From contig JAZKFI010000036.1 of the NCBI GenBank assembly GCA_040386575.1, positions 37,716-101,715 of the forward strand: a stretch of 64,000 nucleotides of DNA, given 5' to 3'. Source of the DNA: Pseudomonadota bacterium. GTDB lineage: Bacteria; Pseudomonadota; Gammaproteobacteria; Burkholderiales; Burkholderiaceae_C. This document shows, one piece after another, positions 15,053 through 19,875 of this stretch. Position 1 is the stretch's first letter; every line of letters starts with the position of its first letter. The position numbers and the translations under genes are program-made. The notes under the pieces are model-generated. The model was not told where the DNA came from. It searched no databases and was given only the letters and a program-made list of their open reading frames with translations.

Positions 15053-16156
15053 CTAGTGAATCGTGCGACGACCGCCGGTCGTCGCGAACTGCGCAATGTC
15101 ACGGATGCCTTGCTGGTTACCTGTCAGCAGCTCCTGAGCAAATCGTCCAGTCATGCACGAAGCATCCAGTGCAAGAGCGCGGTCGAGCGCTGCCCGAGCC
15201 TGATCCCGTTCCTGCGCAAGCGCATGAACGACGGCGCGGGCCCCATGCGCCTCGGCATTACCTGCGTCGAGCGATATCGCCTTTTCCAGTGCGGCGGCAG
15301 CGCCTCCCAGGTCCTCGCACATCACGCAGGCCCAGCCCAGGGCCTGCAACGTTTCGACGTGCTCGCCCATCGTCCCCAGGGCGTTTTCCAGCGCACCGCG
15401 CGCCTCCTCGAATTGCCGATCGAGCAGCGCTGCAAAACCCAGGCTTGACCAGGTTCTTCCGTCGCCTGGACTCATTGCCAGGGCTTGCTGCAGCAGTCGC
15501 CTTGCCAGAGCTGTGTCCTGCGCGGCCAACGCGGCACCCGCGCGCGCGACGAACGGCTCGACCTGGTTCACGCCAGCATCAATGGCACGCTGCGAAAGCC
15601 GCGCCGCATCGGCCAACTGCGAGAGGTCGAGCGCGATCAGGCTGGCTACACCACATGCCTGGGCGCCCAGCTGTCCAGACGACATGCGGGCGAGCGCCCA
15701 GTTCCACGCCTCCTGCAATGCGCCCAGGTGGTGCATTGCGCGCAACCACAGAGCGTGTGCCGGTGGTTCCGCACCGGCCGCGGCTGCGTCGTCGTGAGCG
15801 AGCCACGGCCTCAACATGGCTGCGCAGGCGGCATGGTTGCCGCGCAGAAATTCAAGGTACGCGAGGTTGTGCGAGATCGCAGGATGCGGGCCGGCCGACG
15901 CTTCGAGCTGCCTCAGGATGTCGCTCGCCTCGTCCAGCCGGCGCTGCGCGATGCGAAGCGTGGCGCGCCTGAACTGCCACGCCGCCGCGTTGCGAGAGAC
16001 GGCCAGGCCGGCCTCGATGAGTTCGCCGGCCCGATCAAACTGGGCGGCGGCAATGGCGGCCTCGGCAGTGTCGGCCAAGAGCAATTCGTTGTCCGGGTCT
16101 TGCTGCAGCATTGATTCGAGCCGCGCGAGGCGAGATGGAGCGGGTGTGGAATTCAT
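15053..16156 (-). CDS. Tetratricopeptide-repeat (TPR) protein
   Basis: 367 aa of Ala/Leu-rich repeated helical hairpins of ~34 aa. It lies directly downstream of the sigma-factor gene. Confidence 0.65.
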   Translation of the reverse strand: MNSTPAPSRLARLESMLQQDPDNELLLADTAEAAIAAAQFDRAGELIEAGLAVSRNAAAWQFRRATLRIAQRRLDEASDILRQLEASAGPHPAISHNLAYLEFLRGNHAACAAMLRPWLAHDDAAAAGAEPPAHALWLRAMHHLGALQEAWNWALARMSSGQLGAQACGVASLIALDLSQLADAARLSQRAIDAGVNQVEPFVARAGAALAAQDTALARRLLQQALAMSPGDGRTWSSLGFAALLDRQFEEARGALENALGTMGEHVETLQALGWACVMCEDLGGAAAALEKAISLDAGNAEAHGARAVVHALAQERDQARAALDRALALDASCMTGRFAQELLTGNQQGIRDIAQFATTGGRRTIH

Positions 16157-16183
16157 CGGGTCAGACTTTCAATCCAAACAAGG

Positions 16184-16969
16184 TCAACAGCACATATCAC
16201 GGGGTCGCAACCGGTCCTTGACGAGTTCCAGGCCCCGCCGGTGGATTTGCGAAATGCGCCCGCGGGTCAATGCCATGGTGGCAGCGATTTCCTCGAACGA
16301 GACTTCCTGGAAGTAGTGCGAGCGGATCACGCGCCGCTCTTGCGGTGGCAGTGCTTCAACGATCTCGGCAATGCGCTTTCGCAATTCCTGCAGTTGCACA
16401 TTCCTGTAGAAGTGCTGCACGCCCGATGCCTGCTCGGGTGTGTCCTGCGCTTCGATCATGCCAGTGCCATCGAGGATCCACGACAGGGCAAAGGCGATCC
16501 CAACCTCGGCGACATAACGCAGCGCCTGTTCAGCGTTGCGAACACCCTTGGGAGGTGGGTCGGCAGCTTCCTTGATGACGGCCAGCCGCCTGGCCTGTGC
16601 CCGCTGACGCGCAGCAATCTGCTGCTGCTTCTCGGTCAGCCGCGTGATGCCGTCGATGATGGAGCCGTGCATTCGCTGGGCGGCGAAGGTCTTGAACTGC
16701 ACACCAAATTCGGGATCGAACCTGTCCAGTGATTCGAGCAGGCCGACGGCAGCGAGCTGATGGTAGTCCTCGTATTCGATCTCGTCGTGCATCCGTTTCG
16801 AGTAGCAAACCTTTGCGAGCGTGCACGCCGCGGGCATGTGCAGGGCAATCAGCTTCTGGCGTGCGGCGTCGCTGCGATGCACGCGAAACAGCTCCCACAA
16901 CGTCGCCTCGTCTTGCACCTCATCGACTGGGCAGCGGGCAACGGTGTCAAGGGTGTCCAGCGCCATCAC
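16184..16969 (-). CDS. Sigma-70 family RNA polymerase sigma factor, group 3 (FliA/sigma28-like)
   Basis: 261 aa with region 2 (YHQLAAVGLLESLDRFDPEFGVQFKTFAAQRMHGSIIDGI) and a region 4.2 HTH (EIAATMALTRGRISQIHRRGLELVK). The start is GTG at 16969 or ATG at 16966. Confidence 0.8.
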   Translation of the reverse strand: MMALDTLDTVARCPVDEVQDEATLWELFRVHRSDAARQKLIALHMPAACTLAKVCYSKRMHDEIEYEDYHQLAAVGLLESLDRFDPEFGVQFKTFAAQRMHGSIIDGITRLTEKQQQIAARQRAQARRLAVIKEAADPPPKGVRNAEQALRYVAEVGIAFALSWILDGTGMIEAQDTPEQASGVQHFYRNVQLQELRKRIAEIVEALPPQERRVIRSHYFQEVSFEEIAATMALTRGRISQIHRRGLELVKDRLRPRDMCC

Positions 16970-16972
16970 GGT

Positions 16973-17680: not shown

Positions 17681-18765
17681 GCCGCAGTCCCGGGTGCGCC
17701 CGTTCGCGCCTGCCGCATCGCAAACACCCACACCAGAATGCGTGCCACCTGCGCATACAGGTTCGGCGGAACGTGCTGTTCAACGTCGACGGTGCGGTAC
17801 AGCTCCCGTGCCAGCGGCGGGTTTTGCACCACCGGTATGTTGTGCCGCGCGGCGATCTTCCTCATCGTGGCCGCGAGCGTGCCGGCACCCTTCGCGACAA
17901 TCTGGGGGGACTGCATCTGGCCGTGCACATAGCGCAGCGCCACCGCGAAATGTGTCGGATTGGTCAGGACAACGTCCGCCGTTGAGGTATGACGCACGGC
18001 CATGCTGCGCTTGAGCGCTTCGCGGCGCAGTTCGCGCAATCTCGCCCGAATGCGCGGGTCGCCTTCGCGAGTCTTGTTTTCGTCCTTGAGTTCGCGCCGG
18101 CTCATGCGCATCTTCTTGTCGAACTCGCGGCGAGTGAACCCGAAGTCCACCAGCGCGATGATGCAGAGCATCAGCGCCATCTTCAGGCCAGTGGCGGCCA
18201 CGTCATCAACGAGCGTGCGCAGCAGCCTAGGAGCGGACATCGAAGCCAGGTGAAAGAACTGCGGCATCAGGCTCTTGAGCGCCTGATAGACCACGAGGCC
18301 GAGTAGCAGCAGTTTGATGATCGCCCGCGCACCATCGAACAAGGTGCGCATGGAAAAGACCTTCTTGAATCCATTGACAGGATTCGCACGGTCGAAGTCA
18401 GGCTTGACGGGATCGGCCGAGAGGATAGCACCGGTTTGCATCATGTTGCCTGCTATCGCAGCAATGACGATCGCACCCAGGAATGGCGCCAGCATGAGCA
18501 GGCTGTCCTGCACCATGGCGCTCACCAGCCGCCAAAGACTGGCGGGGCTGGCCTCCATGCGACCGGCTTGCGCCAGCAGCGAGTGGTCATAGCGAAATTG
18601 CGCGACGAGTCCATCGGCGCCCTGCCAGTACAAATACGCCACGGCCACGGTGAAAACGATCGCGGAAACCATGTCCGCGCTCTTGCCGACCTGGCCCTTG
18701 TCCCTGGCCTTTTCCAGTTTGTAGGGCGTGGCGGCTTCGTTGCGGTCGAGGTCCTGGTCGGCCAT
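17677..18765 (-). CDS. flhB: Type III/flagellar export apparatus switch protein FlhB/SctU
   Basis: 362 aa from [26 protein letters not shown]. It has four TM helices and the NPTH autocleavage motif ([13 protein letters not shown]). ATGA overlaps occur at both ends. The longer track ORF (to 18990) overlaps fliR. Confidence 0.85.
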
Positions 18766-19598
18766 CAACGTACTCCCTGAACGGATGCAGGCGAGACAGA
18801 CAGCGTGGCATCCCAGCTCTTGTAGATAGACCCGTAGATGCGGCTCATGGAATCGCCCATGCCGCCGAACCAGAGAGACAGCGCGGCCAGGCCGACAACG
18901 ATCTTGACCGGGATGCCGATCACGAACATGTTCATCTGGGGCAGGTTGCGCGCAACCACGCCAAGCGCGAGTTCGACGAGCAGGAGGCAAACCACCACGG
19001 GGGCTGCGAGCGCGAAGCCCATCCCGAAGAGCCCGCCGACCTGCTTGATGACCAGAGGCACGCTCGCCTCCAGCGGCCAGGGGCGCCCGAGGGGAAACCG
19101 CTCAAGGCTGAACGCGATGCCGCGAAGCAGTGCGTGGTGGCCGTTGATCAGAAAGAAGGTGATGACGCCAAGCCGGTCGAATGCCGAGGTCAGCACGGGC
19201 ACCTGACGGCTGGACACCGGGTCGTAAACCTGCGCCATGCCGAAGCCGATCTGGATGTCGATCAGACGCCCGGCCAGCGAGATCGCGGCGAACGCGCTGA
19301 GGATTCCCAGTGCCAGCATGGCCCCGAGGGCCACCTCTGTCAGGGCCGCAGCAAAGAGTGCTGCCGAACCGGCCGCGAAAAACGGGTCGACCAACCCCTG
19401 GACCGGAACGCCGAGCGCAAGGGCCGCTGCCAGGCCGATCAGCAGCAGCAGGCGGGCAACGGCCGGAACCCCGAATGCGTAAAGCACAGGGGTCATCAGG
19501 AACACCGCCGAAAGGCGAAGCGACAGGAGGAAAACCGCCACGACATAGCCGGGATCGACTGCGCCAGCGAGGCCGGAAGCGATGAGGCTGAAATTCAT
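18765..19598 (-). CDS. fliR: Type III/flagellar export gate protein FliR/SctT
   Basis: 277-aa polytopic membrane protein with the FliR pattern (LRLSAVFLMTPV..., LINGHHALL, PQMNMFVIGIPVKI). Confidence 0.8.
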   Translation of the reverse strand: MNFSLIASGLAGAVDPGYVVAVFLLSLRLSAVFLMTPVLYAFGVPAVARLLLLIGLAAALALGVPVQGLVDPFFAAGSAALFAAALTEVALGAMLALGILSAFAAISLAGRLIDIQIGFGMAQVYDPVSSRQVPVLTSAFDRLGVITFFLINGHHALLRGIAFSLERFPLGRPWPLEASVPLVIKQVGGLFGMGFALAAPVVVCLLLVELALGVVARNLPQMNMFVIGIPVKIVVGLAALSLWFGGMGDSMSRIYGSIYKSWDATLSVSPASVQGVR

Positions 19599-19599
19599 G

Positions 19600-19875
19600 T
19601 CATGTGCCGGGGAACATGGCGGGAATCTGGGTCCAGAGCCGGTTCGTGAACTGGGAGAGCGTGCGCAGCATCCAGGGACCGAAGACGACGAGCGAAATTG
19701 CGGCCGTCACCAGCTTGGGAACAAACGTCAGGGACATCTCCTGGACCTGCGTAACCACCTGCAGGATGCTGATAGCAAGCCCGACCAGCATCACAAGTCC
19801 CAGCACTGGCAGGCAAACCAGCAGGCCGGTCCAAAACAGGTCAGCCATCATGGCGATGGCCACATCTGAACGCAT
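19600..19875 (-). CDS. fliQ: Type III/flagellar export gate protein FliQ/SctS
   Basis: 91 aa from MRSDVAIAMMADLF. The segment ISILQVVTQVQEMSLTFVPKL matches the FliQ core. AAGGA lies about 8 nt upstream of this ATG. Confidence 0.8.
   Translation of the reverse strand: MRSDVAIAMMADLFWTGLLVCLPVLGLVMLVGLAISILQVVTQVQEMSLTFVPKLVTAAISLVVFGPWMLRTLSQFTNRLWTQIPAMFPGT

Follow-up and report, generated by a model that had tools for sequence, protein, structure and literature searches.

The flagellar export gate is built of FliP, FliQ and FliR in the stoichiometry FliP5-FliQ4-FliR1, together with FlhB and FlhA, and it is to this gate that the name 'M-gasket' belongs. We describe here an orphan set of gate genes on the minus strand of a 64,000-nt stretch of bacterial DNA (the window; positions 37,716 to 101,715 of contig JAZKFI010000036.1, assembly GCA_040386575.1, Burkholderiaceae_C), in which fliQ, fliR and flhB are followed by a gene for a hybrid of FlhA and FliP, a sigma factor gene and a gene for a TPR protein. 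A candidate 'type 3' flagellar system (flhA3) that includes no flagellin has been described in Xylophilus ASV27 and KACC 21265, where its content is FlgABCDEFGHI, FlhAB and FliAEFHIJMNOPQR (Roux et al. 2026, Microbiol Spectr, PMC13436205). In Escherichia coli the secondary flagellar cluster Flag-2, which some strains possess and others lack, disappeared through a single large deletion that truncated the two terminal genes, one of them an flhA homologue (PMC3032704). In Xanthomonas, deletions in the flagellar cluster were reported in 5% of more than 300 strains, in several patterns and in association with insertion sequences (IS) (PMC3826837).

The window comes from the same family as Xylophilus, and the cluster carried by its intact relatives equals the flhA3 system in gene content and in having no flagellin; judged by gene content alone, the two would be orthologous (PMC13436205). 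The window itself differs in keeping only the two ends of the cluster, and the passages on the flhA3 system mention no deletion derivatives (PMC13436205). The loss of a secondary flagellar cluster by one large deletion, with truncation of an flhA homologue, is shared with Flag-2 (PMC3032704), and the Xanthomonas strains provide a precedent for large flagellar deletions that are natural and recurrent within a genus; those deletions are IS-associated, varied in pattern and affect a true motility flagellum (PMC3826837), whereas no IS element was seen at this locus, its flanks are collinear with those of the sister species G056, and one junction is reused with codon precision. The locus also departs from Flag-2 in its join, which links flhA to fliP, in frame and recurrently. 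The partner remnant in Flag-2 is a motB-like gene, and to our knowledge neither an in-frame chimera nor a repeated independent origin has been found there.

The locus was compared by blastn with that of the sister species G056, in which the cluster is intact (G and L labels denote genomes and loci, P labels protein clusters or their members, C labels contigs; G000 is the genome holding the window). The two were collinear on both sides of a single gap of 16,796 nt in G056 coordinates, with identities of 87.6% for window positions 20050-17076, 81.2% for 17086-12367 and 89.8% for 12236-8000. The locus lies at the chromosomal position that the cluster has in G056 and is collinear with intact clusters at both ends; of the full cluster content, only fliQ, fliR, flhB, the 5' part of flhA (flhA'), the 3' part of fliP ('fliP) and the sigma gene are left in the window. 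At the positions of the junction, the flhA side of G056 reads GGC ATC ATC ATC TTG and its fliP side GGA ATG ATG ATG ATG CCG. These alignments identify the locus as the in-situ remnant of a compact, flagellin-less operon of flagellar type after one deletion. The deletion, of about 16.8 kb, ran from codon 202 of flhA to the methionine loop of fliP (GMMMMPP), taking out all rod, ring, hook, ATPase and switch genes; the reading frame continues from the first 201 codons of flhA straight into the final 34 of fliP. The odd order flhA'-'fliP-sigma follows from this single deletion because fliP is the last structural gene before the sigma gene. A first-pass annotation of the window had proposed either a recently decayed flagellar or non-flagellar island or the use of the products in trans with another locus, and the collinearity with G056 bears out the former.

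The DNA flanking the junction in G000 was most similar to that of G056 on both sides (91.3% identity over 150 nt on the left, 91.7% over 96 nt on the right), as compared to 85-89% on the left and 72-74% on the right for the other alleles with the same junction. An import of the junction into G000 from another lineage was rejected on these grounds, and the flanks indicate that the deletion arose locally in the G000 lineage. DNA was at hand for three alleles with this junction (G000, G018 and L085). In G000 the junction sits within a 200-kb contig, and the same join was found in independent assemblies and in metagenomes of several sources.

The G000 genome (54 contigs, 99.41% complete) yielded one FHIPEP match and one FliP match, both of them the hybrid. 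A full-length FliP, the pore subunit, was absent from the genome, the FliP profile being matched at positions 160-191 of 191 only, as was a full-length FlhA with its cytoplasmic ring domain, FHIPEP being matched at positions 1-183 of 657. When the window's own gate proteins were run against the genome by tblastn, self-matches only were obtained; 20 proteins of the intact cluster of G008 matched the TPR gene, fliQ, fliR, flhB, residues 1-221 of FlhA, residues 308-344 of FliP and the sigma gene, all on the window contig. FliH, FliI, FliJ, FliF, rod and hook proteins of G008 had no match in the genome by tblastn, aside from weak FliI matches (25-36% identity) on contigs C7 and C14, presumed to be other ATPases, and neither Flagellin_N nor FliG_C was matched in the G000 genome. 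Compared to the flagellar export gate, the FliQ, FliR and FlhB of the window are full length, score as flagellar equivalogs and keep the NPTH motif of FlhB, whereas FliP is reduced to its last 34 residues and FlhA to its 201 N-terminal residues without the cytoplasmic domain, and the junction falls in the FliP methionine loop. With no further flagellar or type III locus present in the genome, the surviving FliQ, FliR and FlhB and the hybrid are, as read from their sequences, unable to build an export gate, and the remnant probably no longer works. The earlier statement that the set is incomplete and the FliP5-FliQ4-FliR1 gate impossible thus agrees with the genome-wide search, in which the sole FliP match was the hybrid tail. 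A complete cognate set immediately outside the window, which the annotation had allowed for, was not found when the whole genome was searched.

The flagellar NCBIfam models outscored the Sct models for all four gate proteins: TIGR01400 gave 169.3 bits for fliR (cut-off 168.6) against 83.2 for SctT, TIGR00328 gave 347.2 bits for flhB (cut-off 349.25) against 311.4 for SctU, and TIGR01402 gave 86 bits for fliQ (cut-off 88.9) against 58.1 for SctS. The intact relatives, moreover, carry rod, L-ring, P-ring and hook genes, which likewise sets the locus apart from the injectisome, the non-flagellar type III secretion system (T3SS). These scores favor the flagellar type that had been suggested from the gene order. 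A neighboring CesT-like gene had been taken as a sign of a non-flagellar system; it adjoins the cluster in the G000 clade only, and the two further CesT-like genes of G000 stand in a genome with no type III system, so that this sign does not hold.

In the relatives, the intact order was read by Pfam in G008 and by NCBIfam in G056. About 25 genes lie on one strand in the order fliQ-fliR-flhB-flhA-flgF-flgG-flgA-flgH-flgI-flgB-flgC-fliE-fliF-?-fliH-fliI-?-?-flgD-flgE-fliM-like-fliN-fliO-fliP-sigma-TPR, the TPR gene being last in most. An identical gene order was found in G016 and G015 and in three further genera of the family (G326, G448 and G515). The sigma gene directly follows fliP in every intact cluster inspected; the TPR gene follows the sigma gene in G056, G014, G106, G326, G448 and G515, and lies upstream of fliQ in G008 and G016. 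The 118 genomes of the genus were probed with the 235-aa hybrid; proteins near-identical to those of these relatives carry the source names Ramlibacter or Caenimonas. An FlhA N-terminus of the cluster type (at least 71% identity) was present in 44 of the 118 genomes, and in 24 of those 44 the FlhA N-terminus and the FliP tail were 15.7-18.2 kb apart on one contig, a spacing which indicates that at least 24 members of the genus, as well as G056, have the cluster intact. Cluster-type FlhA was also found in 13 of 201 sampled genera of the family. No match to Flagellin_N or to FliG_C was obtained in any of five genomes (G000, G056, G008, G018 and G015); G326 has the cluster and no flagellin, and G448 and G515 encode flagellins elsewhere in the genome. 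Since G056, G008, G015 and G326 are without flagellin, and the first three of these without FliG, the cluster does not specify an ordinary motility flagellum. It is a compact flagellar-type machine with rod, rings and hook, widespread in the family. G056 has in addition a second FHIPEP gene (G056:C5:277047-277637; 52% identity, within an open frame of 704 aa), presumably of another type III system, and the same search gave no such gene in G000, G014 or G106.

Altered loci were found in 10 of the 118 genomes and represent at least six independent events. Eight of the 10 end within fliP, all eight in frame (junctions in Table 1). G003 apart, the methionine loop of fliP holds the breakpoint in five of the nine genome-derived alleles, and four different 5' partners are joined to it; G023 and G079 retain just an open frame of 60-90 aa which ends in the FliP tail and is followed by an intact sigma gene. 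A deletion with both ends in the middle genes was not seen among the altered loci that were read. Trees were built by quick methods from short conserved sequences. In that of FlhB and FlhA (35 loci), the seven deletion rows need six changes, and G000 is sister to the intact G056, with G014 and G106, each with a junction of its own, as the next branches.

Proteins of 129-413 aa in a large protein collection were also probed for hybrids. The window junction occurs in at least 21 protein clusters (P0001-P0021), all with both Pfam domains and of 234-235 aa, except for two that are longer; the junction itself was read in 20 of these clusters, and five further hybrids within clusters, when read, all had it as well. 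As this search detects intact open reading frames (ORFs) only, decayed hybrids would be missed. The N-terminal tree has 146 rows, 27 of them with a deletion; 15 changes are required to account for these 27, and well-supported branches force six of the 15. The residue just ahead of the crossover follows the FlhA of the lineage itself (AGIIIL in G056 and AGII|MM in G000; AGILVM in P0149 and AGILV|L in G018), lineages with AGIV in FlhA have the junction AGIV|MM, and the crossover codon varies between alleles. Together with the G000 flanks, which are closest to G056, these features imply that the junction arose locally and repeatedly, and the combined sequence comparisons indicate that like deletions arose independently many times in the genus. 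In a scan of metagenomes, one hybrid (L085) was found among the 80 loci kept, the remainder having a full-length flhA.

The genes that remain look intact. Between G000 and G056 the ratio of nonsynonymous to synonymous rates (dN/dS) was 0.031 for flhB, 0.019 for flhA', 0.064 for fliQ and 0.107 for fliR at a dS of about 0.5, and the FliP tail showed no nonsynonymous and eight synonymous differences (all values are Nei-Gojobori counts with parsimony branch assignments from our own scripts rather than likelihood models). Pairs of genomes with independent deletions gave similar results, with flhB at 0.052-0.057 for a dS of 0.67-0.86 and FliP tails at 0-1 nonsynonymous versus 7-11 synonymous differences. 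On the terminal branches, the gate genes of five deletion lineages had accumulated 351.5 synonymous and 69.5 nonsynonymous changes (N/S 0.198), as compared to 289 and 61 (N/S 0.211) in four intact lineages. The two ratios do not differ (Fisher p = 0.77), and a count ratio of about 2.87 would be expected under neutrality. The annotation had left open whether elevated dN/dS would mark these genes as pseudogenes already; across the relatives the values were low, and nonsynonymous changes are not in excess in the deletion lineages, a pattern that fits young deletions.

As regards expression, all eight alleles ending in fliP have the start of the sigma gene 3-7 nt past the fliP stop, and no obvious ribosome-binding site of its own was seen for the sigma gene at the usual distance upon reading the sequence; translation up to the fliP stop may therefore be needed. 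The deletion would leave the promoter, the 5' genes and an uninterrupted frame to the fliP stop, so that the sigma and TPR proteins could still be expressed by translational coupling. As regards its origin, the breakpoints may lie in a short in-register quasi-repeat, the (ATC)n of flhA and the (ATG)4 of fliP, which would point to illegitimate short-homology recombination or template switching.

What keeps the remaining genes intact can be explained in more than one way. We consider it probable that the deletions are young and their remnants short-lived, which makes a decayed island the best account of the locus. The genes would then look intact because the deletion is recent compared with the split between species, and the deletion alleles would be short-lived side branches arising again and again from intact clusters. 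Every hybrid with a known close relative does adjoin a nearly identical full-length allele: the FlhA part of the G018 hybrid shares 99% identity with P0149, a full-length FlhA, the P0007 hybrid lies at a distance of 0.017 from the full-length sequence of G091, and the hybrid pairs P0137/P0005 and P0009/P0006 differ at the crossover codon only. The sigma gene, moreover, is absent in 71 of the 118 genomes of the genus, and flagellar clusters are known to be polymorphic for presence and absence in nature, as with Flag-2 of E. coli and in Xanthomonas. Several observations weigh against this account. If evolution has been neutral since the deletion, between 1.8% (with the intact lineages as a baseline) and 9% (with a baseline of zero) of the G000 terminal branch, at most, postdates it, and a similarly tight bound was obtained in G014, G106, G101 and G063; such bounds call either for a high rate of deletion with quick loss of the remnants or for continuing selection. 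The full-length allele nearest to G000 among those known is 97% identical, with a dS of about 0.5, so that in G000 itself the deletion is only presumably young. Nor is the site of the junction conspicuous. The best in-register identity there is only 12/18. When positions of the 5' block (fliQ-flhA) are paired with those of the 3' block (flgF-fliP), a fraction of 7.1e-4 of the 65 million pairs match this level, 120 pairs elsewhere attain at least 15/18, and many other gene pairs of the cluster share exact repeats of 11-12 nt. Strong microhomology was accordingly rejected as the cause of a hot spot. On these comparisons the breakpoints are far from random, and homology is insufficient to account for them: either the (ATC)n/(ATG)4 triplet runs make the site a hot spot mechanically, or tolerance is limited to a few products, for which a need to translate up to the fliP stop would be a plausible filter.

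A second scenario, possible but doubtful in our judgment, is that the remnant operon fliQ-fliR-flhB-hybrid-sigma-TPR is maintained by selection as a working unit after the loss of the apparatus. Either the sigma factor (and the TPR protein) matters and is translated only if ribosomes reach the fliP stop, with the membrane proteins having to stay well behaved, or the hybrid has a new function together with FliQ, FliR and FlhB, and the recurrent junction is the product that selection has passed. Constraint was not relaxed in any of the five deletion lineages, all five of which have the tight bound described above, and the low flhB ratios and nearly unchanged FliP tails of independent-deletion pairs, the repeated use of a junction of ordinary homology, the concentration of breaks in the methionine loop, the short frames kept in G023 and G079 and the distance of G000 from any known full-length allele all agree with such selection. 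Conversely, alleles with the window junction are tips beside full-length alleles of 97-99% identity and form no deep clades of their own. A clade of six hybrids with conservative replacements only had seemed to be proof of long-term selection; this argument was dropped because P0149 was found, and with it the sole apparent hybrid-only clade dissolved. The in-frame state of the fusions is also weak evidence, because codon periodicity places short repeats in frame: 64-69% of the exact 9-12-nt repeats between genes were in frame (1089/1699, 356/525, 106/156 and 34/49), against which eight of eight has a p of about 0.03 if independence is assumed, and in-frame fusion as proof of selection is weakened to that extent. 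The frequent absence of the sigma gene suggests that all remnants are eventually lost, the G063 allele destroys it, G003 keeps flgE'-fliP, and no mechanism is known for a gate that has no FliP. Should the junction instead have arisen once, long ago, and spread by homologous recombination in its flanks, its codon-level identity in at least 21 protein clusters would be explained, as would a site whose homology looks too weak for a hot spot; we regard this as quite improbable, given that the junction DNA of G000 is most like the intact allele of its sister on both sides and that the residue before the crossover and the crossover codon vary with the lineage as described. Most improbable of all is that the products serve a different flagellar or type III locus in trans, or that the deletion is an assembly artefact. 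The intact, tightly coupled state of the remaining genes would be in keeping with either; use in trans, the other proposal of the first-pass annotation, is excluded because a nearly complete genome holds no other FHIPEP, FliP or deleted gene, and an artefact is opposed by the long contig around the junction and by the same join in independent assemblies and metagenomes.

As a deletion derivative of a known, uncharacterised kind of cluster, the locus is ordinary. What is out of the ordinary is the codon-precise, in-frame flhA::fliP chimera which recurs across lineages, combined with no detectable decay. A published description of such a chimera was not found, which is not proof that none is in print. 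A tentative idea, to which we give a minor chance, is that the chimera is the favored end product of organelle loss and the remnant operon a selected expression or regulatory module; if this were true, the chimera would have been chosen, although tens of thousands of position pairs offer short homology as good or better, as a topologically sound five-helix membrane protein that carries ribosomes to the fliP stop, and the cluster would hold a built-in, reproducible 'off by deletion' switch. Proteins of 235 aa that are filed as 'FHIPEP family type III secretion protein' or 'FlhA' are in fact a two-gene deletion chimera; they mark genomes that have lost the apparatus, and it would be a mistake to score them as a type III or flagellar system. 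The altered loci also provide a clean natural set of large deletions that occurred in parallel and whose intact ancestors are known, in which parallel loss by hot spots versus selection becomes testable.

The features of the locus are listed in Table 1. The positions and minus strand given by the annotation for fliQ, fliR, flhB, the hybrid, the sigma and TPR genes and the CesT-like gene were confirmed by profile searches. Its account of tight coupling stood for fliQ-fliR (TGA-C-ATG, a 1-nt gap) and for flhB-hybrid (an ATGA overlap); at fliR-flhB the junction is TGATG, a 1-nt overlap, and not the ATGA that had been described. The preserved FlhB NPTH cleavage motif occupies residues 269-272 when MADQDL is taken as the start. 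Within the hybrid, the flhA' part holds the first transmembrane helices and the conserved FHIPEP loop, and an AlphaFold2 model of the whole hybrid, computed from an 18-row alignment, had a mean pLDDT of 48.1 and a pTM of 0.26 and was uninformative. The sigma gene starts 3 nt (GTG) or 6 nt (ATG) past the hybrid stop. The best specific model for its product was TIGR02479 (FliA/WhiG), at 91.7 bits and below the cut-off of 189.6; by its domains the protein is a FliA-like member of the sigma-70 family that falls short of a certified FliA/WhiG (sigma-28).

Table 1. Features of the locus in the window, followed by the junctions read in altered loci of the genus. Coordinates refer to the window; a slash marks the crossover.
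Feature	Position	Strand	Remarks
Upstream (putative promoter) region, AT-rich	19876..20050	-	homology to intact G056 locus extends to 20050
fliQ, 91 aa from ATG at 19875	19600..19875	-	PF01313, 85.5 bits; ORF open up to 19923; AGGA upstream of start
fliR, 277 aa	18765..19598	-	PF01311, 172.9 bits; 89.9% identity to G056 protein
flhB, 362 aa from MADQDL	17677..18765	-	PF01312, profile 2-335 of 335; 96.7% identity to G056 FlhB
Hybrid FlhA(1-201)::FliP(last 34 aa), 235 aa	16973..17680	-	FHIPEP profile 1-183 of 657, then FliP 160-191 of 191
flhA' part, residues 1-201, ends ..KGDAIAGII	17078..17680	-	FHIPEP, 319.7 bits; 97% identity to N-terminus of full-length G056 FlhA
'fliP part, last 34 codons + stop	16973..17077	-	FliP profile, 37.2 bits; TIGR01103 fliP positions 162-197 of 197
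Deletion junction GGC ATC ATC / ATG ATG CCG CC	17067..17086	-	two G056 blastn alignments overlap by 11 nt (17076-17086)
Sigma-70-family factor, 261 aa	16184..16969	-	Sigma70_r2 + Sigma70_r4
TPR protein, 367 aa, last gene of unit	15053..16156	-	TPR_19 + other TPR families
Convergent ORF (p231), no known family	14355..15050	+	no Pfam/NCBIfam match; conserved part ~residues 81-231
CesT-like gene	13998..14459	-	PF05932, 34.3 bits
592-aa gene	12204..13982	-	no family matched
G000 junction			..AGII/MMPP
G018 junction			..AGILV/LPP
G014 junction			..GLIVF/LPFLLIDL
G106 junction			..GLIVFC/MMMMPP
G101 junction			..QTYTLL/IIVLS
G090 junction			..QTYTLLT/IVLS
G023 junction			FliQ ..MLVGL/VMMPP
G079 junction			5' part of non-cluster origin, then /VLPP
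G063 junction			FlhA ..EAGFY joined out of frame into sigma
G003 altered locus			Rhs-like N-terminus joined to 'FlgE; flgE' to fliP retained

G000 and G056 share a conserved block upstream of fliQ, which G106 has in part, and a simple scan found no sigma-70 consensus upstream of fliQ. About 80-100 nt upstream of the gene, at 19955-19973 of the minus strand, there is a perfect palindrome, TTGAAC-TTAATTA-GTTCAA, of which G056 keeps a part (TTGGACTAACTTAGTTCAA); it may be a candidate regulator binding site of the operon. Further upstream, 3.6 kb (20050-23654) separate the fliQ upstream region from a gene for an MFS transporter and contain an OmpR-type response regulator, a sensor kinase, a 230-aa membrane ORF and a 143-aa ORF. 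In G056 the MFS gene lies about 66 nt from the conserved block, so that the 3.6-kb segment would be an insertion in G000 or a loss in G056.

At the other end, relatives of the convergent ORF p231 adjoin the cluster in G014, G016, G056, G106 and G003 (tblastn), making it a recurrent neighbor of the sigma and TPR genes; a search of the Atlas with p231 returned clusters of 'hypothetical protein' only. That p231 could be a regulatory partner of the sigma factor, for example an anti-sigma factor, is pure conjecture. The CesT-like and 592-aa genes adjoin the cluster only in G000, G056, G014 and G106, which form the G000 clade, and were not found in the fetched stretches of G008, G016, G018 and G015; on this distribution they are clade-specific neighbors outside the conserved cluster. 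Between species, the pair had a dN/dS of 0.12-0.23. The two other CesT-like genes of G000 are at C22:23320-23829 and C30:12809-13207, and all three adjoin a large ORF of no known family (721, 778 and, in the window, 592 aa).

Other fusions were seen among the altered loci and in the protein collection. In L066 (G063; 1518-2120) the join of FlhA' to the sigma gene is out of frame and the N-terminus of the sigma factor is lost. P0105 and P0112 (393-395 aa) have an FlhA' ending in ..EAxFY that is joined in frame to the sigma factor, and would be membrane-anchored sigma factors. L060 (G003; 5509-7431) is a 640-aa ORF with an Rhs-like N-terminus (DUF6531, RHS repeats) and FlgE from about residue 57, followed by fliM-like, fliN, fliO, fliP and sigma genes; as its sequence indicates, it is an in-frame fusion produced when the other end of the cluster underwent deletion or rearrangement, in a genome with 9% contamination. 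P0015 (263 aa) carries an insert of 28 residues in the conserved FHIPEP loop (..NGAGRVAEGVQRG..AVQRVSEV..), which looks like a local duplication or a misassembly. Finally, fragments with at least 90% identity to these Comamonadaceae FlhA or hybrid proteins were filed under Escherichia coli, Raoultella, Ralstonia pseudosolanacearum and a eukaryotic Dinobryon set; the contigs that hold them are very short, and the fragments look like contaminant DNA.

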